From the NCBI GenBank assembly GCA_022826705.1, contig JAJDUJ010000029.1, forward strand, positions 11,026-75,025: DNA of 64,000 nt. Reading direction: 5' to 3'. Made by a program: the position numbers and the translations under genes. Of this stretch, positions 11,229-23,535 are shown piece by piece (positions within the stretch are counted from its first letter, which is position 1; each line of letters begins with the position of its first letter). Origin of the DNA: Acidimicrobiia bacterium (lineage in GTDB: Bacteria; Actinomycetota; Acidimicrobiia; Acidimicrobiales; Bin134). The notes beneath the pieces are model-generated. The model did no database searches, was not told where the DNA came from, and saw nothing but the letters and a program-made list of their open reading frames with translations.

Positions 11229-11304
11229 TACTTTCAGGTAATTACAGCTATAGCCACTAGCTATGGCTATGATTTACTTCACGAGTCGTTGGGGAGGTCA
11301 CCTC

Positions 11305-11589
11305 ATGGCAGCAAAACAGCGGACCATTCCGGCTGGAGAGTTCAAGAACCGGTGCCTGGCCCTGATGGATGAGGTGAACGAGACCGGCGAGGAGATCGTG
11401 ATCACCAAGCACGGCAAACCGGTGTCGCTCCTGATTCCGGTGAAGGAGCGGAAGCCAATATTCGGGATGTTCAAGGATCAGATCAAGATCACCGGCGACA
11501 TTATGTCTCCCGCTATCCCTCTTGAGGATTGGGAGGCCATCAGCAATCCCGACCGGGTGCTAAATCCTGAACTCCCAATTCGCGAGTGA
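11305..11589 (+). CDS. Phd/YefM family antitoxin
   Basis: AGEFKNRCLALMDEV..TGEEIVITKHGKPV; GGAGG RBS before ATG 11305; overlaps toxin start. Confidence 0.88.
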   Translation: MAAKQRTIPAGEFKNRCLALMDEVNETGEEIVITKHGKPVSLLIPVKERKPIFGMFKDQIKITGDIMSPAIPLEDWEAISNPDRVLNPELPIRE

Positions 11590-12002
11590 TCCTTCTCGAC
11601 ACCCACACCATCTTGTGGTCGACGACGGATTCGCATCTCCTAGGAGATCGATTCAGGGCCACGCTCGAAACAGCATGGGATGCTGGCTCTGTGGCTGCTT
11701 CGTCATTCGTGTTCTGGGAGCTCGCCCTATTGCAGGCGAAAGGAGTACTGGAAATGGCCCAGCCTCCACGGCAAATCAGGGACAAACTGCTAGCGAACGG
11801 CCTGACCATTATCCCGGTGGACGACGAAATCGCCATTCGGTCTGTTGAGCTTGGCGCGGCGGGATTCCATTCCGATCCCGCCGATCGGATCATTACCGCC
11901 ACAGCCATCGTCGGCGGCTACCAGCTGGCCACTGCCGATCGTGCGATCACCGATTGGGCCAACCGAACCAGGCTTGTCTCAATTCTCGACCCCAAGAATT
12001 GA
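11586..12002 (+). CDS. vapC: VapC PIN-domain toxin
   Basis: ILLDTH, WE, HSDPADRIITATA, LATAD. Confidence 0.9.
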   Translation: MILLDTHTILWSTTDSHLLGDRFRATLETAWDAGSVAASSFVFWELALLQAKGVLEMAQPPRQIRDKLLANGLTIIPVDDEIAIRSVELGAAGFHSDPADRIITATAIVGGYQLATADRAITDWANRTRLVSILDPKN

Positions 12003-13311: not shown

Positions 13312-16300
13312 ATGGATGACTTCCTCGTAGACCGGGATCCCACAACTTGGTCGGCACCGGCAGGGTTTCCGTCATCACTGACGCCGGCGGGGGTGTTTGT
13401 TCAGGATGCTCCAAGCGGGTTGGAGGTGACGCTGGTTCGAGCGTCTAGTAAGCCCAGGACAGCGGAACTGCGTGATGGGTGGTCAAAGCGGCGGGCCGGG
13501 CGGGCCAGCCCGGTGCTGCTGGTGGCGTTCTATCCCACTGCTGAAGGTCAGCTGGTTTCCTTGTGCGGCCCGGTGGGGGAGCCGCCGGTGGTGCACCACG
13601 ACCTCGAAGTGTCGCAGGCCGAGCGCCTGTCTGAGGTGGCGTTGAGCGAGCCCAGCCACCATGCTGCCACCCGGTTCCTGTTGGCGGCCATGCCCGAGCT
13701 GGAGTCGCCTTTCCCCGGACTCCGCAACGTTGGCCTGTTGGCCACTCAAGAACTGAGGGCTGGCGTACCCGATCGAACAGACTGGCCAACCGCTAGCCAT
13801 AAGTCATTGGCGCTTCTTGGGCGTCGAGGCCGACGACTGGTAGAGGGCTTGGGCTTTCACATCCAGACGCTGGCCACCAATGCCTCTATGCTCACCATTG
13901 ACGGCCGCAATCATGCCGTGGCCGTGTTTTGCGACGAGGACGAGCCCTTCGAGGCGCCCTCGAACCGGTTCGACAACACCTCCCCGGTGTCGAGGGCTCT
14001 GGCTCTGGCCGACCAGCACCGGGTGGACTGGGTGATTCTCACCCGGTCGTCGGAGATCCGCCTCTACGCCGCCCGTCCCGACACCGGTGTGGGCCGCAAG
14101 GGTCGGGCCGAGACGTTCGTGGAGCTGAACCTGTCGCTCGTTCCCGATGAGTTGGCCGGCTACCTGCACCTGCTGTTCTCAGCCGATGCGCTGGCCGACA
14201 ATGGCACCCTCGATCAGATACTCGAGCACTCGGCCGATTTCGTCGCCGAACTGGCCGTTCGGCTTCGAGAGCGGGTGTACCACCAGACGGTTCCGGCACT
14301 GGCCAACGCGGTGGCCGCCCGGCGGTCTCGTGATCGACACGGAGACGACTTGGGCGAAGGCGATCAGGCCGACGCCTACGAGCAGGTGATGGTGATCTTG
14401 TTCCGGCTGCTGTTCGTGGCCTACGCCGAGGACAAAGACCTGCTGCCCTATCGCACCAACGGGCGCTACGCCGACCACTCGCTGTCACATATAGCCCGGC
14501 TGCTGGCCGATGATCGCCGCCTGGAACGTGCCGACTATGACGAGCAGGCCACTGATCTGTGGGACGACGTAAACCAGCTTTGGGATGCAGTCAACCACGG
14601 CAATGCCGACTGGGGCGTGCCCGCCTACAACGGTGGCTTGTTCTCCGCCGATCCCGAGGTGAGTCCGTCGGGAGCGGCCATCGCCCATATCAGTCTGACT
14701 AACGCCGAGTTCGGTCCTGCTCTCTCCGCGGTATTGGTGGACCAGAGCCCCGAGGGGGTGGGGCCAGTGGACTTCCGCTCGCTGTCCGTGCGGGAGTTCG
14801 GCACCATCTACGAGGGCCTCTTGGAGTCGAAGCTGTCAGTGGCCCAAGACGATCTGGCCATCAAGACCATCAAGGGCAAAGAGCAGTACGTGCCCGCGGC
14901 CGGAGACGACGAAGTGGTAGTGGAGGCAGGTGCGGTGTACTTCCACAACCGCTCTGGGGTGCGCAAGGCCACGGGCTCCTACTTCACCAAGCCGTTCGCC
15001 GTCGAACATCTGCTCGACAACGCATTGGAGCCCGCCCTCGATGACCATATCGCCCGGCTCGACGACCTGCGAGAGCGAGGCGACGACGCCGCGGTGGCCG
15101 AGGCCTTCTTCGACTTCCGCTGCGCCGACATCGCCATGGGCTCGGCCCACTTCCTGGTGGCCGCCGTCGACCGCATCGAGGCCCGCCTATCGGCCTGGCT
15201 CACCCTCCATCCCGTTGCCGCCGTGACCGCAGAACTGAACCGTCTGCGCACCACCGCCCTCGAAGCTCTGGGCGATCTGGCCGACGGGGTGCCGATCGAA
15301 TCCGGTTCCCTACTGCGCCGCCAAGTGGCCCGCCACTGCGTCTACGGCGTGGACAAGAACCGAGTAGCCGTCGAGCTCGCCCGTCTCGCCATCTGGGTCC
15401 ACACCTTCGTCCCCGGCCTCCCCCTGTCGTTCCTAGACCACAACCTGGTCCAAGGCGACAGCCTGACCGGGGTGACGTCTGTGGACGATGCCGCCGCAGC
15501 GGTTGCGCCGAAGGGGAGCAAGGACGGGGCATCGCTGTTTGTTCATCAGTTGGAGAGTCTCTTGGAAGCCTGCCAAGCGCCCCTGGCTCGACTCGGGCGG
15601 CTCAACGACGCAGACAAGGCCGAGATCGAAGCAGCCCGAACCGCCCACGCCCAGACCCGTGAGGCTGTCTTACCGGCCGAAGCCGTTTTCGATGTGGCCA
15701 CCGCAGTGCGTGCGGGGGCCATTGAAATACACAAGGACTTCGACTTCAGCCCAGAGAAGGTGGCATCCCTAGCCGAACAGTCAGCCGTGCGTGCCGCGGT
15801 GGAGCGGATGACCCCGGTCCACTATCCGACGGTGTGGCCAGAAGTGTTCGCTCGGACCGAGCGAAGCGGCTTCGACTGCCTGCTGGGCAATCCCCCTTGG
15901 GAGAAAGTAGTGGTGGACAGGGAAGTCTGGTGGGGGATGCACCTACCGGGCGTCCGGTCGCTGCCAGTGGCGAAGCGGCGAGCCCGCATCGATGCTCTAG
16001 AGGCACAGCGGCCAGACCTAGCTGAAGAGTTCGAAAGCGAAAGGGAGCGGGCCGAAGCGCTCAAACTGGTACTGCGAGCCACGTTCCCCAACCTCGGGTC
16101 AGGGCAAACCGACCTCTACAAAGCGTTCTCCTGGGCCAACCTCGCCTTGTGCCGAGAAGGAGGCAAGATCGGTATGGTGCTGCCTCGGTCCGCGGTATCT
16201 GACGCTGGCATGGCCAACTGGCGAACCGAGATCGTCGGTGCTCCTATCAATGACGCAACTAAGCGCAGGGGGGGGGTACCCAGCCCGATGCGGCTATCGG

Positions 16301-16977
16301 TGGCCACGGTCATCAACCACAAGGGCTGGGTGTTCGAGGGGGTCCACAACTCCTACACGGTGGCGCTGGTGGCGGTCACCCGGTCTTCTCCGTCGTCACC
16401 TGCCTCAACACCAAGCATTGGGCGTTCGACGGGGTCGACGGCCGCTACACCGTCGCGCTCGTCGCCGTCCGCAAGCTCAGCCCCCGAGCCGAGCCAAGGG
16501 GGTGGCTTTGAGGGCGACCCAGATGAGCCGCATGTAGCCATCTACCCCGGCCCGGCGAGTTCGCCAGCCCATTTCCACACCATGGTGGACGGGAAACCGG
16601 AACTTGTGCCGGTATCGGAGTTCACCCGGTGGTCAAACACGGCGGCCTTCCCCCAGATTCCAACACGACCCGCCTTCCGCGTCTGGCGCAAGATCAAACA
16701 GCATCCTCGCTTCGACGGCGCCGACGTATCTGATCCCGCTGACTCTCTCTCTCTCTCTCTCTCTCGGAAAGCCGCGGAACTGGCGCTTCCGACCGGTTCA
16801 GGGCGACCTCAACGCGACCAACGACCGCCACCGGTTCTGGAACGACGACGGACGTGGCGCTTCCGGGCAGTGGCCGAGTTCCACGCGACGCACGACCGGA
16901 GCAGGTTCGTGAACGACGATGGCGCTTCCGCCCAGTTCGAGAATTCGACGCGACGCACGACCGGAGCAGGTTCGTGA
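13312..16977 (+). CDS. Type IIG/Eco57I-like gamma-class N6-adenine DNA methyltransferase (current phase state, 1221 aa)
   Basis: GSYFTKP, ADIAMGSAHFL (motif I), YGVDKN, LLGNPPW (motif IV), TDLYKAF, WVFEGV (motif VIII); N-terminal WVILT...RLY region. Confidence 0.9.
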   Translation: MDDFLVDRDPTTWSAPAGFPSSLTPAGVFVQDAPSGLEVTLVRASSKPRTAELRDGWSKRRAGRASPVLLVAFYPTAEGQLVSLCGPVGEPPVVHHDLEVSQAERLSEVALSEPSHHAATRFLLAAMPELESPFPGLRNVGLLATQELRAGVPDRTDWPTASHKSLALLGRRGRRLVEGLGFHIQTLATNASMLTIDGRNHAVAVFCDEDEPFEAPSNRFDNTSPVSRALALADQHRVDWVILTRSSEIRLYAARPDTGVGRKGRAETFVELNLSLVPDELAGYLHLLFSADALADNGTLDQILEHSADFVAELAVRLRERVYHQTVPALANAVAARRSRDRHGDDLGEGDQADAYEQVMVILFRLLFVAYAEDKDLLPYRTNGRYADHSLSHIARLLADDRRLERADYDEQATDLWDDVNQLWDAVNHGNADWGVPAYNGGLFSADPEVSPSGAAIAHISLTNAEFGPALSAVLVDQSPEGVGPVDFRSLSVREFGTIYEGLLESKLSVAQDDLAIKTIKGKEQYVPAAGDDEVVVEAGAVYFHNRSGVRKATGSYFTKPFAVEHLLDNALEPALDDHIARLDDLRERGDDAAVAEAFFDFRCADIAMGSAHFLVAAVDRIEARLSAWLTLHPVAAVTAELNRLRTTALEALGDLADGVPIESGSLLRRQVARHCVYGVDKNRVAVELARLAIWVHTFVPGLPLSFLDHNLVQGDSLTGVTSVDDAAAAVAPKGSKDGASLFVHQLESLLEACQAPLARLGRLNDADKAEIEAARTAHAQTREAVLPAEAVFDVATAVRAGAIEIHKDFDFSPEKVASLAEQSAVRAAVERMTPVHYPTVWPEVFARTERSGFDCLLGNPPWEKVVVDREVWWGMHLPGVRSLPVAKRRARIDALEAQRPDLAEEFESERERAEALKLVLRATFPNLGSGQTDLYKAFSWANLALCREGGKIGMVLPRSAVSDAGMANWRTEIVGAPINDATKRRGGVPSPMRLSVATVINHKGWVFEGVHNSYTVALVAVTRSSPSSPASTPSIGRSTGSTAATPSRSSPSASSAPEPSQGGGFEGDPDEPHVAIYPGPASSPAHFHTMVDGKPELVPVSEFTRWSNTAAFPQIPTRPAFRVWRKIKQHPRFDGADVSDPADSLSLSLSRKAAELALPTGSGRPQRDQRPPPVLERRRTWRFRAVAEFHATHDRSRFVNDDGASAQFENSTRRTTGAGS
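16268..16276 (+). repeat. G9 homopolymer inside the methyltransferase gene
   Basis: AAGCGCA-GGGGGGGGG-TACC. Confidence 0.95.
16294..16469 (+). repeat. Two paralogous 28-codon modules (16294-16377 in frame; 16386-16469 in another frame), offset 92 nt
   Basis: LSVATVINHKGWVFEGVHNSYTVALVAV vs FSVVTCLNTKHWAFDGVDGRYTVALVAV; 17/28 identical. Confidence 0.9.
16497..16512 (+). promoter_or_regulatory. Candidate prfB-type +1 programmed ribosomal frameshift signal
   Basis: AGG GGG TGG CTT TGA G in the module-B frame; same geometry as E. coli prfB AGG GGG TAT CTT TGA C; a +1 shift enters the main ORF frame. Confidence 0.65.
16743..16765 (+). repeat. (CT)11C microsatellite inside the methyltransferase gene
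   Basis: GA-CTCTCTCTCTCTCTCTCTCTCTC-GGAAA, encoding SLSLSLS. Confidence 0.95.
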
Positions 16978-16995
16978 ACGACGATGGCGCTTCCG
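16781..16995 (+). repeat. Tandem diverged repeats (74, 65, 65 nt plus a partial fourth), each starting TGGCGCTTCCG
   Basis: Starts at 16781, 16855, 16920, 16985; units encode WRFRPVQGDLNATNDRHRF, WRFRAVAEFHATHDRSRF, WRFRPVREFDATHDRSRF in three different frames. Confidence 0.92.
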
Positions 16996-17011
16996 CCCAG
17001 GAGCAGCGGCC

Positions 17012-17758
17012 ATGAGTGAGGCATGGCCAGTGTACAAGGGCACGTCGTTCAACCTTTGGGAGCCCGACACCGGCATCTATTACGACAGCGCAGACGCAGA
17101 GAGCATGATCGCTCATTTGCATGAGAAGCGGCTGTCGCAGCGTCGTACCCATTCATCGGCGTTCGCCCAACAAGACCAATCGGTCACCGACGATCCAGCA
17201 ACGCTGCCTTGTCGGCATCCGCGTATCGCATTGCGAAATGTGACTAACCCCACGAATACACGCACGCTTCTTGCCGCACTGGTTCCCGGTGATCGGGTGA
17301 TTGTGCATCACGCCCCCTATCTGCTGCGTACTGCGGGTTCGGCTGCTGACGAGGCGTTTGTTCTTGGTGTTCTGTGCTCAATGCCCTGTGACTGGCAGGC
17401 CCGGCGGACTGTCGAGTTGAACCTGACGTTTGAACAGCTCAACTTACTGTCCATTCCCGATCCTGGAAGAGGGCATCCCGTTCGCGACCGAGTAGCAGAA
17501 ATCGCTGCCCTACTAGCTGCCCAAGACGACCGGTTCTCTGGATGGGCCGCTGAAGTAGGCGTGCCTGTCGGCACTGTTGACGCGGGGGGGGGGGCTTGGC
17601 TGCTAGCCGAATTAGACGCCTGTGTCGCCTATCTCTACGGCTTAGACGAGGACGACATCACGGTGGTGTACGACACATTCGGTCGTCCGGGACAGTGGGA
17701 TGAACGACGCGACGCCGTCCTCTCCTGCTTCCGCCGAATCGGGGATTCATGGACCTGA
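17012..17758 (+). CDS. Separately encoded target-recognition (specificity) subunit S1, 248 aa
   Basis: AGGAG RBS at 16999-17003; WPVYKG...PRIALRNVTNPTNTRTLLAALVP...ELDACVAYLYGL, resembling the type IIG C-terminal TRD. Confidence 0.8.
   Translation: MSEAWPVYKGTSFNLWEPDTGIYYDSADAESMIAHLHEKRLSQRRTHSSAFAQQDQSVTDDPATLPCRHPRIALRNVTNPTNTRTLLAALVPGDRVIVHHAPYLLRTAGSAADEAFVLGVLCSMPCDWQARRTVELNLTFEQLNLLSIPDPGRGHPVRDRVAEIAALLAAQDDRFSGWAAEVGVPVGTVDAGGGAWLLAELDACVAYLYGLDEDDITVVYDTFGRPGQWDERRDAVLSCFRRIGDSWT
17584..17594 (+). repeat. G11 homopolymer inside S1
   Basis: GAC GCG GGG GGG GGG GCT TGG. Confidence 0.95.
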
Positions 17759-18521
17759 AGATGCCGCGTCTGAGTTCAACGAGATTTGGCCGGTCTACAA
17801 GGGCACCTCGTTCAATCTCTGGGAGCCGGACACAGGTGTCTACTACGACAGCGCGGATGCTCAGACCATGATTACTCATCTTCAGGAGAAGCGACTGTCG
17901 CAACGCCGCACCCGGACGTCTGCATTTGCTGAGCAGGACGAATCAGTTGCTGATGACCCTGCAACGCTGCCCTGCTTGAATCCCAGGATCGCATTTAGGG
18001 ATGTTGCCCGATCGACAGATACACGAACGCTCATAGCTGCTCTTATTCCCGGTGTCCGGGTAATTGTGCATCAGGCGCCCTACTTGCTTCGCACTCTTGG
18101 TGCAGGCAGGGATGAGGCGTACTTGCTCGGTGTCCTGAGTTCAATGCCTTGCGACTGGCAGTCCCGGCGCACTGTCGAACTGCACATGACCTTTGAGCAG
18201 TTTGGTCTGTTGTCCATTCCCGACCCCGGAGAGGGTCATCCTGTCAGGGACCGAGTCGTGGAAATCGCCGGCCGCCTGGCTGCGGTGGACGAGCGGTTCG
18301 CGGAATGGGCGGCAGAGGTGGGGGTGCCGGTGGGGTCGGCCAATGACGAGACGGCCAAACAAGACCTCATCTGTGAGCTCGACGCCTGCGTCGCCCACCT
18401 CTACGGCCTCGACGAAGACGACTTGGCCGTGGTCTACGAAACCTTCAGCGAAACCGTTGACTACTCCGACCGCCACGCCGCCGTCCGCACCCATTTCAGG
18501 AAGCTGCATGACTGCGGTTGA
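17700..18521 (+). CDS. Second specificity subunit S2 (paralogue of S1), 273 aa; start uncertain
   Basis: WPVYKG...PRIAFRDVARSTDTRTLIAALIP...ELDACVAHLYGL; colinear with S1 at a 763-nt offset. Confidence 0.78.
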   Translation: MNDATPSSPASAESGIHGPEDAASEFNEIWPVYKGTSFNLWEPDTGVYYDSADAQTMITHLQEKRLSQRRTRTSAFAEQDESVADDPATLPCLNPRIAFRDVARSTDTRTLIAALIPGVRVIVHQAPYLLRTLGAGRDEAYLLGVLSSMPCDWQSRRTVELHMTFEQFGLLSIPDPGEGHPVRDRVVEIAGRLAAVDERFAEWAAEVGVPVGSANDETAKQDLICELDACVAHLYGLDEDDLAVVYETFSETVDYSDRHAAVRTHFRKLHDCG

Positions 18522-21500
18522 GAAGCCCGAGTTGGCCGTTAACCGGGGCCAGGACACGGTGGCGGGAGCGCTGAACGGGTTCATTTCCCATGCCGCAACC
18601 GGGTTTGTGGGCGGGGCCTGTTTGGATGTGGCCACTGCCTATTTCAACGTGGGCGGCTACTCGCTGCTGGCCGATTCGCTGGATCAGGTCACTGGCGTGC
18701 GGCTGTTGCTGGGAGCGGAGCCGACCCCTCCGGAGAGCCGCCGGCGGGCGCTGCGGACTGAATCGGCCAATCCCCAGCGGGCGATCCGGGCTCGGCTGCG
18801 CCAGGCGCTTGAGGGCCACGAGCAGAACCTTGTGGTTGAGCGAGACCACTTGGGGTTCACGTTTGAGGTTGATGCCTCCACTCGCCGGCTGGTGAAGTGG
18901 CTGCGCTCGGAGAATGTTAAAGTGCGCCGTCTGGAGGGGCGGTTCTTGCACGGCAAGGCGTTCTTGGTGGGGAACCGCTCCCATGGGGTGGTGGCCGGTT
19001 CGTCCAATTTCACCTATGCGGGGTTGGCCACCAACTTGGAGCTGAACCTGGGCAACTACTCGCCCCATGTGGTGGGTCAGGTGCGCGACTGGTTCGAGGA
19101 ACTGTGGGCCGAGGCCGCGGAATACGACTTGGCCTCGCTGTTCGAGGCCCGATTCGAGCCTCACTCCCCTCAGCTCGTGTATCTGCGAATGCTGTGGGAG
19201 TTCTACGGCGAGGAACTCGAGGCCGAGGCCGCCGCCGAAGGCGCGCCGCAGATTCACCTCACCAATTTCCAATCAGACGGGCTGTGGCGGGCCCGGCGCA
19301 TCTTGGACGAGCGCAACGGGGTCCTCATTGCTGACGAGGTCGGCCTGGGGAAGACGTTCTTGGCCGGAGAGTTGATCCGGGAGGCGGTGCAGGATCGTCG
19401 TCAACGGGTGTTGGTGATCACCCCTGCCACGCTGCGCGACGGGCCGTGGCGGGCATTCGTTCATGAGCACTTGTTGGCGGTGGAGCTCGTGTCGTACGAG
19501 GAGCTGATGGCCGACAGCCGCCTAAACCCCGAGCACACAACTGCCATCAAGCTGAAAGCTGCCATCAACGAATACGCCATGGTGGTGATCGACGAGGCCC
19601 ACAACCTACGCAATCCTGGCACCCAGCGGGCTCACGCGCTGCGCCAGCTGTTGGCAGGATCGCCTCCCAAGGAGCTGGTGATGCTCACCGCTACTCCGGT
19701 GAATAACAGCCTGTGGGACTTGTATCACCTGCTGGGCTACTTCTTACGCAGCGATGCTGTGTTTGCCGATGCTGGCATTCGCTCTCTGCGCGACCACTTC
19801 GCCAAAGCGATGGCTCTCAACCCCGACGACCTCACCCCCGAGCATTTGTTCGACGTGCTGGACGCGGTGGCGGTCCGCCGAACCAGGTCGTTTGTCAAGC
19901 GCTTCTACCCCAATGACACCATCAAGGTCGGCGGGCAAGAACGGCAGATCGTCTTCCCCACTCCCCGGGTCCACAAGGTGGACTACAACCTCGACGAGGT
20001 GATGCCCGGTTTCTTCGACCGGTTTGCCGATGCGCTCGATCCCGACGCCAGCGTCGAAGATCCCGGCGTGCTCACGATGGCTCGGTATTCGCCATCGCAG
20101 TTTCGTTTAGACCATGAGGAAGATGCTTACGAGAAACAGCTTGCCGGGCTGTTGCGATCTGGATTGCTGAAGCGTTTCGAGTCTTCGCCCTATGCCTTTG
20201 CCGAGACCTGTGAGCGAATGGCCAAGAGCCATGACACCTTTCTGTCGCTGCTCGACAACGGCCGGGTAGCCACTGGCGACGCTTTGGCTGACTGGATCGC
20301 CACCGACTCCGACGAGATGGACGAAGATCAGGTCGACACCTTCCTGGGCGGAATCGTCGGGGTGTCCGATGACGCGGCCGAGTACGACCTCGAACATCTC
20401 CGAGAATACGTGGACCGAGATCGAGACCTGCTGAGGTCGTTCGTTGCCGAGGCCCGCACCGTCACCCGCGCAGATGATCCCAACCTGAACGCCTTGGTTG
20501 AAGAGCTGGCCCAGATCTCCGCCGATGCCGCTGCTGAAGGTATCGGCCCCGACGACGTGCGCGATCGGGGCAAGGTATTGATCTTCAGCTATTACGCCGA
20601 CACCGTCGCCTGGGTTTTTGAGCATCTGGTTTCCACTGTTGAAGCCGATGAGCGCCTGGCTCCCTATCGAGGTCGCATCGCCTCGCTAGCGGGCAACTCC
20701 GGCTCGGGGAGCAAGGAGCGAGTGCTGTGGGGGTTCGCCCCCAAGACCACCGATGCCCCCGAGGGCGCCGATGAAGACCTGTTCGACATCGTGGTGGCCA
20801 CCGACGTGCTGGCCGAGGGGGTTAACCTCCAGCAGGCCCGTCACATCATCAACTACGACCTGCCCTGGAACCCGATGCGGCTGGTACAGCGCCATGGCCG
20901 CATAGATCGCATCGGCTCGCTCCACACCGAGGTGTTCCTGCGCTGCGTGTTCCCCGACGATCGCCTCGACGACCTGCTCGGTCTCGAAGAGCGACTGCAC
21001 CTGAAGATCGCCCAGGCTGCCGCCAGCATCGGCGTTGGCGAGGTGCTGCCCGACCAAGTTACCCAAGTCGAGACCAACTTCACTGAGACCAAAGAGGAAA
21101 TCGACCGTCTTCGCAACGAAGACGCTGAGTTGTTCGAACGAGGCGGCACCGCCCGAGGCGTACTGTCGGGCGAGGAGTTCCGCCAAGAACTGCGCCAAGC
21201 CCTTGAAGACTCCGACCTGGCCCGCCAAATCAAGTCCCTCCCCTGGGGCTCAGGCTCAGGCATGGCCGTGGCAAGCCCCGATGGCCACCCCGGCTACATC
21301 TTCTGCGCCCGAGTAGGCGACCACCCCAAACCCCTATTCCGCTTTATCGAAACCGGCTCCGATGCGGACAGTTCCGTGGTAGACGAAACCTTGGCCTGCC
21401 TCCACAAAGCCCGCCCCCCAGATGGTTTCGGCACCGACCGCCAATTGGACGACGCCACCATCCAAGCCGCCTTCACCGCCTGGGAGACCGCCCGCGCTCA

Positions 21501-21843
21501 CATCGTGGAGCGGTGGAACTTCATGTCCGACAAAGCCAACCTAGAACCCAAAATCCCACCCCGCCTCCGCCGTGCCGCCGACATCCTCCGAGAGCACTCA
21601 CCCCCCGACCTCACCCAAGAAGACCTTGACCGCGCTATAGACACCATCAACGCCCCCTACCCCGAACGCACCATCCGCACCCTCCAAGCCGCTATCAGCA
21701 ACATCGAAGACCCTGCCCAGCAAGCCCAAAATATCCTCAACACCATCCACCACCTAGGCCTACAGCCCTACACACCCCCCACCCCCCTCCCCGAAATCCA
21801 CAAAACCGACGTCCACCTAGTTACCTGGCTAGCACTGACCTGA
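18508..21843 (+). CDS. PLD-nuclease domain fused to SNF2-family helicase, 1111 aa
   Basis: ATAYFN, LHGKAF...GSSNFT...NLELN (PLD); ADEVGLGKT, IDEAHN, LTATP, EGVNLQ...NYDLPWNP...QRHGRIDRIG; AGGAAG RBS before ATG 18508. Confidence 0.9.
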   Translation: MTAVEKPELAVNRGQDTVAGALNGFISHAATGFVGGACLDVATAYFNVGGYSLLADSLDQVTGVRLLLGAEPTPPESRRRALRTESANPQRAIRARLRQALEGHEQNLVVERDHLGFTFEVDASTRRLVKWLRSENVKVRRLEGRFLHGKAFLVGNRSHGVVAGSSNFTYAGLATNLELNLGNYSPHVVGQVRDWFEELWAEAAEYDLASLFEARFEPHSPQLVYLRMLWEFYGEELEAEAAAEGAPQIHLTNFQSDGLWRARRILDERNGVLIADEVGLGKTFLAGELIREAVQDRRQRVLVITPATLRDGPWRAFVHEHLLAVELVSYEELMADSRLNPEHTTAIKLKAAINEYAMVVIDEAHNLRNPGTQRAHALRQLLAGSPPKELVMLTATPVNNSLWDLYHLLGYFLRSDAVFADAGIRSLRDHFAKAMALNPDDLTPEHLFDVLDAVAVRRTRSFVKRFYPNDTIKVGGQERQIVFPTPRVHKVDYNLDEVMPGFFDRFADALDPDASVEDPGVLTMARYSPSQFRLDHEEDAYEKQLAGLLRSGLLKRFESSPYAFAETCERMAKSHDTFLSLLDNGRVATGDALADWIATDSDEMDEDQVDTFLGGIVGVSDDAAEYDLEHLREYVDRDRDLLRSFVAEARTVTRADDPNLNALVEELAQISADAAAEGIGPDDVRDRGKVLIFSYYADTVAWVFEHLVSTVEADERLAPYRGRIASLAGNSGSGSKERVLWGFAPKTTDAPEGADEDLFDIVVATDVLAEGVNLQQARHIINYDLPWNPMRLVQRHGRIDRIGSLHTEVFLRCVFPDDRLDDLLGLEERLHLKIAQAAASIGVGEVLPDQVTQVETNFTETKEEIDRLRNEDAELFERGGTARGVLSGEEFRQELRQALEDSDLARQIKSLPWGSGSGMAVASPDGHPGYIFCARVGDHPKPLFRFIETGSDADSSVVDETLACLHKARPPDGFGTDRQLDDATIQAAFTAWETARAHIVERWNFMSDKANLEPKIPPRLRRAADILREHSPPDLTQEDLDRAIDTINAPYPERTIRTLQAAISNIEDPAQQAQNILNTIHHLGLQPYTPPTPLPEIHKTDVHLVTWLALT

Positions 21844-22374: not shown

Positions 22375-23535
22375 GTGCCATTGATTGCTCGGTCGGTTGA
22401 CACGCAGAGGCTGCGCGAGGCGATTTCGCATGCTCCGGTGACGTTGCTCACCGGTCCTCGTCAGGCAGGGAAGTCCACTCTGGCGGGCCAGACCGTTAGC
22501 TCGTCGCCGGCTGCGTTCTTCGACCTTGAAGATCATCGCGACCTCGCCCGTCTCGCCGAGCCGACGCTGGCTCTGCGCGACACCGGCGAGACGATGGTCA
22601 TCGACGAGGCCCAGCGGATGCCGGAGTTGTTCCCCACGCTTCGCGTGCTCGTGGATGAGAACCGCAGGCCGGGCCGGTTCGTCGTGCTGGGCAGCGCGTC
22701 TCCCGACCTTGTCGGCCTCGGCTCGGAGTCGTTGGCCGGCCGGGTGACGTTCGTGGAACTCGGGGGCTTTCGGCTCGCCGATGTCGGCCCTGAGCGTCTC
22801 GACGACCTGTGGCTGCGAGGGGGCCTGCCGGAGTCCTTCGTGGCGGCCACCGATGAGGCGTCCAACCGGTGGCGCGACGATTACATCTCCACTTTCTTGG
22901 AGCGCGATCTGGCCGCTTTGGGCTTCAGGTTTCCGGCCACGACGATGCGGCGATTCTGGACGATGCTGGCCCATTATCACGGGCAGACCTGGAACGGGGC
23001 CCGCATCGCCCGGTCGATCGATGTCTCGGAGTCGACCGTGAGACGCTATGTCGACGCGCTGAGCGATGCCTTGGTGGTGCGCCAACTGCGGCCGTGGTTC
23101 ACCAACATCTCGAAGCGCCAGGTCAAATCGCCTCGGGTCTACATCCGCGACTCGGGCCTGCTGCACCGCCTGCTCGGGATTTCCACGATGTACGACCTCG
23201 AGCGATCCCCGATGCTCGGCGCGAGCTGGGAGGGCATGGTGGTCGAGCAGATCCTCACCAGATTCGCCTCCGCCGACCCAACCTACTGGTCGACCCATGG
23301 AGGTGCGGAGCTTGACCTGCGCCTGGAGACCGACGGACGGGTCCTCGGATTCGAGATCAAGCGCACGGCCCAGCCAGCGGTCACGAAGTCGATGCACATC
23401 GCCCTAGCCGACCTCGAACTCGACCACCTCTTCGTCGTGTACGCCGGCCCCCACCGCTTCGCGCTCACCGATCGCATCACCGCCATCGGGGCGGCAGACC
23501 TCCTGACCGCTCAAGATCCCTTGTCCGCGCCCTAG
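22375..23535 (+). CDS. AAA_14 family ATPase with DUF4143
   Basis: LTGPRQAGKST, VIDEAQ, VLGSAS, ESLAGR, LRGGLP, KRQVKSPRVYIRDSG, ELDL..FEIK. Confidence 0.9.
   Translation: MPLIARSVDTQRLREAISHAPVTLLTGPRQAGKSTLAGQTVSSSPAAFFDLEDHRDLARLAEPTLALRDTGETMVIDEAQRMPELFPTLRVLVDENRRPGRFVVLGSASPDLVGLGSESLAGRVTFVELGGFRLADVGPERLDDLWLRGGLPESFVAATDEASNRWRDDYISTFLERDLAALGFRFPATTMRRFWTMLAHYHGQTWNGARIARSIDVSESTVRRYVDALSDALVVRQLRPWFTNISKRQVKSPRVYIRDSGLLHRLLGISTMYDLERSPMLGASWEGMVVEQILTRFASADPTYWSTHGGAELDLRLETDGRVLGFEIKRTAQPAVTKSMHIALADLELDHLFVVYAGPHRFALTDRITAIGAADLLTAQDPLSAP

Follow-up and report, generated by a model that had tools for sequence, protein, structure and literature searches.

Why would one gene carry two versions of the same short protein segment in different reading frames, directly behind a run of guanines? 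This question is raised by a gene in a stretch of 64,000 nucleotides (nt) from an Acidimicrobiia bacterium (contig JAJDUJ010000029.1 of assembly GCA_022826705.1), which is called the window here. The product of the gene is predicted, from its sequence and a structural model, to be a Type IIG-like gamma-class N6-adenine methyltransferase. Within the gene, a tract of nine guanines (G9) is followed by two copies of a beta hairpin, modules A and B, which lie in different frames. The locus is probably a three-state switch, in which the length of the tract would select an isoform with hairpin A, an isoform with hairpin B completed by a +1 frameshift of the ribosome, or an off state, and in which A and B would differ in recognition. 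The features on which this reading is based are the following:

13312–16977, plus strand: main open reading frame (ORF) in the G9 state as assembled, 1221 amino acids (aa)
16268–16276, plus strand: first simple sequence repeat (SSR1), the G9 tract, frame selector in the loop joining helix alpha-E to strand beta6
16297–16377, plus strand: module A (SVATVINHKGWVFEGVHNSYTVALVAV), strand beta6, loop with the motif VIII Phe and strand beta7, in the gene's own frame
16389–16469, plus strand: module B (SVVTCLNTKHWAFDGVDGRYTVALVAV), alternative copy of the A hairpin, in the -1 frame relative to A
16497–16511, plus strand: AGGGGG-TGG-CTT-TGA, putative +1 frameshift signal of the prfB type, closing the B frame
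16510–16742, plus strand: linker L (EGDPDEPHVAIYPGPA...FRVWRKIKQHPRFDG...), read in the main frame as a small alpha/beta unit, common to the A and B states and folded in the model
16535–16537, plus strand: TAG terminating the third frame (off state); the natural gene call P0032 (1076 aa) is of the same kind

Three reading states behind the G9 tract

With G9, G6 or G12 the 1221-aa product is obtained, and module B is then read as TRSSPSSPASTPSIGRSTGSTAATPSRSSPSASS. An earlier note on this DNA, made from the sequence, had stated that G9 places A in frame and B out of frame as a Ser/Pro-rich stretch, and this holds on re-reading of the window. With G10, G7 or G13 no stop is met through A, and B comes in frame. 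This part of the note stood as well, but it left unmentioned that the B frame is closed by the TGA at 16509–16511, 13 codons past module B. Because the B frame stops there, a literal reading of G10 gives a product of 1066 aa ending in ...RKLSPRAEPRGWL, and a +1 frameshift or an equivalent would be needed for a complete B enzyme. G8, G11 and G5 lead to the TAG at 16535–16537 after 1073–1075 aa (1074 aa for G8 and 1075 aa for G11), and the coordinates and the length of about 1074 aa given before for this off state are correct.

The core of module A, INHKGWVFEGVHNSYTVALVAV, is located at 16312–16377 (position mod 3 = 1), and that of module B, LNTKHWAFDGVDGRYTVALVAV, starts 92 nt after it at 16404–16469 (position mod 3 = 0). 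Over these 66 nt the two copies differ at 18 nt, and 14 of the 22 encoded residues are identical. The peptide YTVALVAV is the same in both, with exactly five nucleotide differences, all of them at third codon positions, as had been noticed before; the beta7 strand is identical between A and B. Selection on the two copies was followed by the codon-position entropy, measured per site over 33 non-redundant loci of identical spacing (values for A-frame positions 1/2/3):

Module A: 0.21/0.16/0.71
Module B: 0.16/0.94/0.30
Linker: 0.48/0.34/1.46

The highest entropy falls on the third position of the A frame in module A and in the linker, but on that of the B frame in module B. Therefore, B evolves as protein in its own frame, and the selection on B that the earlier note had read from the five silent differences is found as purifying selection across the 33 loci. 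The selected frame switches from B back to A at the invariant GGGGGTGGCTTTGA. From the repeat to B, the A frame and the B frame are both free of stops in all of 46 loci. The third frame is interrupted by stops in 6 loci over this stretch, and in 16 loci over the stretch that separates B from the linker. When the B frame does end, its first stop has an identical offset in 40 of the 46 loci.

Each module also has a residue signature of its own, which was compared over about 40 distinct sequences. The residues N, W, F, V and YTV are common to both signatures. The differences are listed below, with positions counted from the Phe of motif VIII:

Residue after N: H in A, T in B
Residue before W: G in A, Q in B
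Residue after W: V in A, A in B
F+1: E in A, D in B
F+4: H in A (37/37), D in B (40/40)
F+5: N in A, G in B
F+6: S in A (35/37), R in B (40/40)

The fixed differences thus flank the motif VIII Phe (NHKGWVFEGVHNSY in A versus NTKQWAFDGVDGRY in B). In relatives with a single module the triplet F+4 to F+6 is variable (HGQ, EVR, DGR, HQQ, EHR and TPQ). Loops of the B type, for which a search among single-module genes had been proposed, do occur in them, with the VDGRYTV type in L040, L061 and L072 and IDARYTV in P0029.

Conserved layout and natural alleles

A protein search identified 129 homologues, and a locus scan of species-representative genomes revealed 79 loci. The close homologues come from sponge metagenomes, and those with a name belong to Acidimicrobiia or to Ca. 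Poriferisodalis/Poriferisocius. Their gene calls end in any of the three frames, after a repeat at the position of the G9 tract. Gene calls in state A contain module A, a Ser/Pro-rich stretch and then the linker HVAIYPGPA..., those in state B contain ...GHGHQPQGLGVRGGPQLLHGG... (A out of frame), followed by VVTCLNTKQWAFDGVDGRYTVALVAV and RKLSPRAEPRGWL before the stop, and those in the third frame end in ...GVALRATPMSHM and a stop.

Both modules are present in 47 of the 79 loci, mostly in sponge-symbiont Acidimicrobiia, and B is one frame behind A in all 47. The offset from A to B is exactly 92 nt in 46 of these loci, and the linker is in the frame of A in 46 of 47. This dual-module arrangement is far beyond chance. 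The arrangement persists among proteins that are only about 50% identical and occurs in two phyla; in 40 loci the first 980 residues of the protein are intact. The repeat always follows SDAGMANWR and precedes module A, and none of the units in 43 loci (1, 2, 4, 5 and 10 nt) is a multiple of 3. Its sequence differs widely among the relatives, with G6–G21, C10–C15, (GA)n, (TC)23-33, (ACGA)13, (GCCGA)10, (ACAGG)23 and 10-nt units in 6–9 copies. The repeat is lacking in relatives with a single module, among them the isolate Geodermatophilus saharensis; in these genes the distance from NPPW to the module is constant and the module is read in frame. The ancestral form is represented by more distant homologues of 1340–1360 aa, in which a single module, a single WRFRP-like unit and a single C-terminal domain are fused in one protein.

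Members of the gene family were also found in metagenome-assembled genomes of sponge-associated Chloroflexota (Caldilineaceae and Dehalococcoidia; L073, L050, L078 and L059), and L073 has the full layout with two modules and a repeat. Their occurrence in this phylum suggests horizontal gene transfer across phyla in the microbiomes of sponges.

The frame state could be scored in 43 loci, of which 11 are in state A, 11 in state B and 21 off. Natural alleles with B in frame, whose absence the earlier note would have counted against its claim, therefore exist and are as frequent as those with A in frame; some of them are sister to A-state alleles. On a tree of 35 N-terminal bodies, 13 state changes were counted compared to 14.2 ± 1.3 with shuffled labels, hence the states show no phylogenetic signal. 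Sisters in unlike states are the window (A) and L002 (off), which share 99% identity, and L001 (A) and L009 (B).

The length of the tract was compared between samples using the assembled contigs of four sponge metagenomes (X1–X4). A contig of X2 has G11 and is otherwise without difference to the window sequence over about 2.6 kb. In X3 and X4 a strain with 5–7 substitutions carries G5. Contigs of X1 end at the G tract, and the contigs of all four metagenomes break at the (CT)n repeat further downstream; these breaks hint at mixed tract lengths within the population. The L009 strain has one additional G in X22 and is otherwise identical over 1001 nt. The G9 tract thus looks like a hypermutable contingency repeat: it lies within a gene, its unit is not a multiple of 3 and its length differs between near-identical strains. 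Samples X1 and X2 also contain several family members from other strains, whose contigs align to 16290–16360 of the window and which have (TC)n or (GA)n just upstream of module A.

The prfB-like site and the predicted fold

The end of the B frame resembles the programmed frameshift site of the prfB gene, which in E. coli reads AGGGGG TAT CTT TGA C. In the window, a Shine-Dalgarno-like element is located 3 nt upstream of CUU, and the in-frame UGA follows directly. A +1 slip is predicted at CTT (16506–16508) over TGA (16509–16511), by which the ribosome would regain the main frame at the GAG codon of 16510 (EGDPDEPHVAIYPGPA...), that is, in the linker which is common to the single-module homologues. 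NGGGGG TGG CTT TGA or a slip-compatible variant was found in about 45 of the 47 dual-module loci. In forty of them NGGGGG (GGAGG in three) is followed by TGG CTT TGA, or by TGG CCT TGA in six, and CCT is also able to re-pair in the +1 frame. L076 has the TAT spacer known from E. coli, and the remaining loci have weaker variants or no site. The site is constant amid varying flanks, and insertions are found just downstream of it. It is also the point at which the entropy pattern passes over from the B frame to the A frame. Read in the A frame it encodes Gly-Gly-Gly-Phe, with the codons GGG GGT GGC TTT in about 41–44 of 45 loci; within their codon families, GGG, GGT, GGC and TTT are used at 22%, 18%, 50% and 20% in the same genes. 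In two loci the site is swapped for a homopolymer, C12 in L049 (10067–10240) and G17 in L070 (10275–10440), and the bridge between the B and linker frames seems to have moved there from the ribosome to DNA slippage. The 3' end of the 16S rRNA, which was taken from three complete relatives, contains the canonical anti-Shine-Dalgarno sequence (GGATCACCTCCTT).

Some restoration of the frame can be argued for because B is selected as protein, because a stop at 16511 loses the recognition part (the linker, the WRFRP unit and the docking of the C-terminal cassette described below) and because the linker has no start codon. Under this assumption, a minor full-length B isoform and a truncated product would be expected, since the genome's own prfB is single-frame, since the motif is absent from the prfB genes of the Actinomycetota surveyed and since frameshifting reached 6.6% in M. 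smegmatis (PMC12421855).

The 1221-aa frame consists, in this order, of an N-terminal domain, a helical domain, the gamma-class N6-adenine methyltransferase domain, the linker and the repeat unit R2. Motif IV reads GNPPWEKV (residues 859–866, with NPPW at 860–863), it corresponds to the catalytic NPP[YFW] pattern, and NPPW is unchanging across the homologue alignments A1–A3. The PADLOC profile REase_MTase_IIG (PDLC03620) matched with E=8e-205, and its positions 56–1029 of 1378 are covered by the 1221-aa frame. Pfam Eco57I (PF07669) matched with 43.6 bits (cut-off 25.3, E=4e-11). In a Pfam scan of the isolated module region, Eco57I alone was aligned, up to helix alpha-E, so that the hairpin lies past the aligned part. 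Cleavage of DNA may fall to a conserved partner protein with PLD and SNF2 domains, which is encoded downstream.

Residues 331–1221 in the A state were modelled with AlphaFold2, with a predicted template modelling score (pTM) of 0.82. Structural neighbours of this fold in Foldseek, each with a probability of 1.00, are BrxX, CamA, DrdV, BsaXI, M.TaqI and LlaBIII. In the model, helix alpha-E is followed by a low-confidence loop that holds the codons of the G tract (a ten-residue block with a mean predicted local distance difference test, pLDDT, of 53). The hairpin then comprises, in fragment numbering, a strand at 663–671 (SVATVIN), a loop at 672–685 (HKGWVFEGVHNS) and a strand at 686–693 (YTVALVAV), and the out-of-frame translation of B (698–735) has a pLDDT below 50. 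The natural B-state protein P0030 was modelled with a pTM of 0.86. There, the hairpin is formed by B (1002–1008 and 1023–1030), and the out-of-frame translation of A (953–998) has a pLDDT below 50. In these models the modules fit motif VIII, with alpha-E, loop, beta6, Phe loop and beta7 as the final gamma-class hairpin. Given this final position in the gamma-class domain, the Phe of the modules would be the motif VIII aromatic residue; this assignment leans on topology and on Phe196 of M.TaqI, which we take to be the equivalent position.

BrxX (PglX) of the BREX systems is the best match in the PDB (9ewz, 8q56 and 8c45), and it likewise has a gamma-class domain with NPP[YW]. Its structure with DNA showed that loop 587–601 reads the base pair beside the flipped adenine and sets the specificity at this position (bioRxiv 10.1101/2024.04.12.589305). 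F592 and I595 are arranged around the flipped adenine, V599 takes the place of the adenine and residue 598 touches the last base pair (bioRxiv 10.1101/2024.04.12.589305). Positions F+4 to F+6 (HNS in A and DGR in B) have the same linear distance from the Phe as the residues with which BrxX reads DNA. By this analogy, A and B probably differ in their readout of the base pair adjacent to the methylated adenine. In contrast to the gene studied here, BrxX has a single loop without an intragenic selector, the sequence similarity is undetectable by HMMER, and the partner here is a PLD-SNF2 protein. A search of the single protein and of two profiles against solved structures gave matches only around NPPW, or noise.

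Further repeat-controlled elements and readings of the locus

Downstream of the linker, the locus contains a second repeat and further elements in several frames:

16743–16765, plus strand: SSR2, (CT)11.5, second frame selector
16781–17003, plus strand: three and a half tandem units in three frames, with a spacing of 74, 65 and 65 nt
17012–17758, plus strand: C-terminal domain cassette 1, a separate ORF corresponding to about 1131–1372 of the PADLOC profile
17700–18521, plus strand: C-terminal domain cassette 2, in a different frame than cassette 1 (68% identity) and matching the same profile region
18193–21843, plus strand: partner gene with a PLD/HKD nuclease domain and an SNF2 helicase (maximal ORF)

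The counterparts of SSR2 in the relatives have units of 1, 2, 4, 5, 7 or 8 nt, never of 3. The tandem units are variants of WRFRPV...ATxDR...F.NDDG (QGDLNATNDRH, AEFHATHDRS and REFDATHDRS), one per frame, and in each frame one good WRFRPV unit is followed by a stop (16910–12, 16975–77 and 17013–15). The order of the Q, A and R units with successive -1 frames is found in about 30 loci. The ATG of cassette 1 overlaps the stop of the third repeat frame (ATGA, 17012–17015). Cassette 1 itself contains a G11 tract (17584–17594), which is longer by 2 in X2 and by 4 in X3. Two to four cassettes are present in 15 of 73 related loci. Tandem copies of the full gene were observed in L051 (two copies), and three to four C-terminal cassettes in a row in L034 and L071. 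The PLD-SNF2 partner was matched in 65 related loci, and it is located downstream on the same strand in 60 of them; its best match in PADLOC is the candidate 'HKD+Snf2' (C3a139).

On this basis the following mechanism can be proposed. Replication slippage at the G tract would set the frame and thereby give three states. In state A (G9, G12 and G6), hairpin A would be made, the B copy would form a disordered Ser/Pro-rich loop of about 40 residues, and the linker would follow in the same frame. In state B (G10, G7 and G13), the A copy would become a disordered loop rich in Gly, His and Gln and hairpin B would be made. A fraction of the ribosomes would then slip +1 at AGGGGG-TGG-CUU-UGA, as in prfB, and complete a full-length B isoform, while the non-slipping ribosomes would terminate and release a truncated protein without the recognition domain. 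In the off state (G8, G11 and G5), translation would end at 16535–16537. Slippage may in this way alter which site is recognized by the enzyme, the partner of the PLD-SNF2 nuclease-helicase, or may at least alter how active or abundant the enzyme is; the change would probably be reversible within a clone.

A wider form of this proposal is possible, though we regard it as tentative. Three or more repeats would each choose among two or three paralogous DNA-reading elements stored in different frames, and a prfB-type +1 shift would rejoin the main frame, which together would make a combinatorial specificity switch that needs no recombinase. The elements so chosen would be the motif VIII loop (A or B), the three WRFRP units and the two or more C-terminal cassettes. 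If true, a slip from G9 to G10 would change the base accepted beside the methylated adenine, for self-marking and for the attack by PLD-SNF2 together, and a dozen or more restriction specificities could exist within one clonal symbiont population.

Several points weigh against the three-state switch with its change in recognition. The window genome's own prfB has a single frame and no frameshift signal, and the prfB genes of all 2,658 Actinomycetota surveyed lack the frameshift motif (PMC12421855). Frameshifting at this motif was 6.6% in M. smegmatis versus 52.7% in B. subtilis (PMC12421855), and the full-length B isoform may be scarce. An overlapping constraint in two frames could explain part of the conservation of the site. 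HNS and DGR are likened to residues 596–598 of BrxX by their linear distance from the Phe. The evidence from sequencing consists of assembled contigs only, in which mixtures within a population are hinted at by contig breaks, and long homopolymers may be miscalled in long-read assemblies, which would blur the state counts. RNA runs were screened for the gene, and none of those screened contained it.

Other explanations are conceivable as well. A and B could be equivalent hairpins, and the tract would then regulate the dose: full expression with A, a few per cent with B through an inefficient, release factor 2 (RF2)-sensitive shift together with truncated protein, and none in the third frame. 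Such a high/low/off rheostat would suit a defence enzyme that is potentially toxic to its own cell. The likely inefficiency of a prfB-type site in Actinomycetota (6.6% in M. smegmatis) and the identical beta7 strand of A and B agree with it, and so does the predominance of off alleles (21 of 43), which suggests a cost of expression. We nevertheless consider the dose switch unlikely, as separate signatures of A and B are kept over about 40 diverged loci, which a pure change of dose does not require, and as the differences are located in the loop that reads DNA in BrxX. The gene's other two repeat-controlled elements are parts of the recognition domain as well, and a switch of specificity is favoured over one of dose because every element under the control of a repeat belongs to the DNA-reading regions or adjoins them. 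If no frameshift took place at all, state B would end at the TGA at 16509–16511 and yield a nuclease/methyltransferase core without recognition domain, which might be a regulator, a decoy or a partner of separately made recognition cassettes. Gene calls of 1042–1070 aa ending in ...PRGWL are indeed found in many genomes, the C-terminal cassettes are already separate ORFs, and the motif shifts poorly in the one actinomycete tested. However, this explanation is improbable, since it accounts neither for the frozen synonymous sites of GGGGG-NNN-CTT-TGA and the exact prfB geometry nor for the C12 and G17 substitutes that bridge B to the linker in two loci, and it would leave the linker and the R unit without a start codon.

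Slippage could also take place in the RNA polymerase, so that every cell would contain a mixture of A, B and truncated forms and the length of the DNA tract would matter little, with no heritable switch. Tracts of 9–33 units are long enough for transcriptional slippage elsewhere, and the gene has remained intact although many alleles are off-frame. On the other hand, near-identical strains differ in tract length at the DNA level, the states are random on the tree, as predicted by DNA slippage, and G/C tracts are generally poorer slippage sites than A/T tracts. We regard this explanation as very improbable as a replacement for DNA slippage, although the two processes are not mutually exclusive. 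Finally, the gene could be a decaying pseudogene, in which tandem duplications have left behind the second copy and the frame breaks and the G tract is an ordinary hotspot of inactivating mutations. The assembled gene is split from its C-terminal domain, and about half of the related loci are off-frame, as would be expected from decay. Codon periodicity, open frames and conservation contradict this view: purifying selection acts on each copy in the respective frame, the frames of A and B stay open throughout, the layout with identical offsets is kept across 47 loci that belong to two phyla and share as little as about 50% protein identity, 40 loci have intact N-terminal 980 residues and repeat units that are a multiple of 3 do not occur. 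The pseudogene was therefore rejected as hardly credible.

What is known of repeat-driven phase variation in restriction-modification (R-M) systems comes mostly from a few pathogens, in which it turns genes on or off. Examples are the Type III mod phasevarions, the Type IIG gene cj0031 of Campylobacter jejuni with its poly-G tract and pglX of Streptomyces coelicolor with a G tract. The locus shares with them a repeat that is not a multiple of 3, a length that varies between strains and natural on and off alleles, but these genes have two states, whereas here two of the three frames encode alternative versions that are both predicted to work. The nearest published case is that of JHP1272 (Hpy99XIV) and HP1353–HP1354 of H. 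pylori, in which an on/off homopolymer is combined with a second one that adds a small recognition domain (Krebes et al. 2014, PMC3936762). The frame change in JHP1272 converts GGWTAA to GGWCNA, at bases -1 and -2 from the methylated A (PMC3936762). The H. pylori Type IIG genes likewise encode a single-chain restriction-methyltransferase and contain two or more homopolymer tracts. However, their tract appends a C-terminal piece, whereas here internal copies of a hairpin are swapped, the unused copy is read as a disordered loop and one path needs a prfB-like +1 shift; the change of specificity is suggested here by sequence and analogy.

With Type I hsdS genes (shufflons and hsdS with NgoAV-like repeats) the locus shares the stochastic choice among DNA-recognition modules of one R-M system, but those genes depend on recombinases and inverted repeats or on truncation of S, while the alternatives here are stacked in frames without a recombinase. 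In comparison to prfB, the elements AGGGGG, a 3-nt spacer, CUU and UGA have the same spacing and the +1 frame continues a conserved protein, but the site is neither in prfB nor autoregulatory, and it is predicted to be used only once the DNA repeat has set the alternative frame. Literature searches found no description of a repeat-selected two-frame hairpin architecture. Going by sequence and model, what appears to be new is the storage of internal hairpin copies in different frames, with the unused copy tolerated as a disordered loop, together with a prfB-like rejoining of the frame. Out-of-frame DNA within a gene can be a stored spare part and not noise, and the motif VIII loop is indicated as a switchable specificity determinant. 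The site would be a second natural use of the prfB signal, in Actinomycetota, where it was thought to be absent and ineffective. Many genomes from sponge microbiomes appear to have these genes annotated as truncated or broken; most of the close ones among the 129 homologues end in one of the three frames.

The flanking genes are not conserved, and the methyltransferase together with its cassettes and the PLD-SNF2 gene has the look of a single mobile defence module. Among the neighbouring ORFs tested, which comprise a Phd/PIN pair, unknown ORFs, the PLD-SNF2 gene and an AAA_14/DUF4143 ATPase, no partner gene of BREX or DISARM was found (BrxC, PglZ, DrmA and DrmB), and MANTIS/Gao_RL, BREX and DISARM were ruled out as the home system, since their partner genes are absent among the tested neighbours. 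A pair of a Phd/YefM antitoxin and a PIN-domain toxin is located just upstream of the locus (11263–12002), where unconserved ORFs were observed as well. An AAA_14/DUF4143 ATPase is encoded at 22375–23535, and the neighbourhood resembles a defence island.

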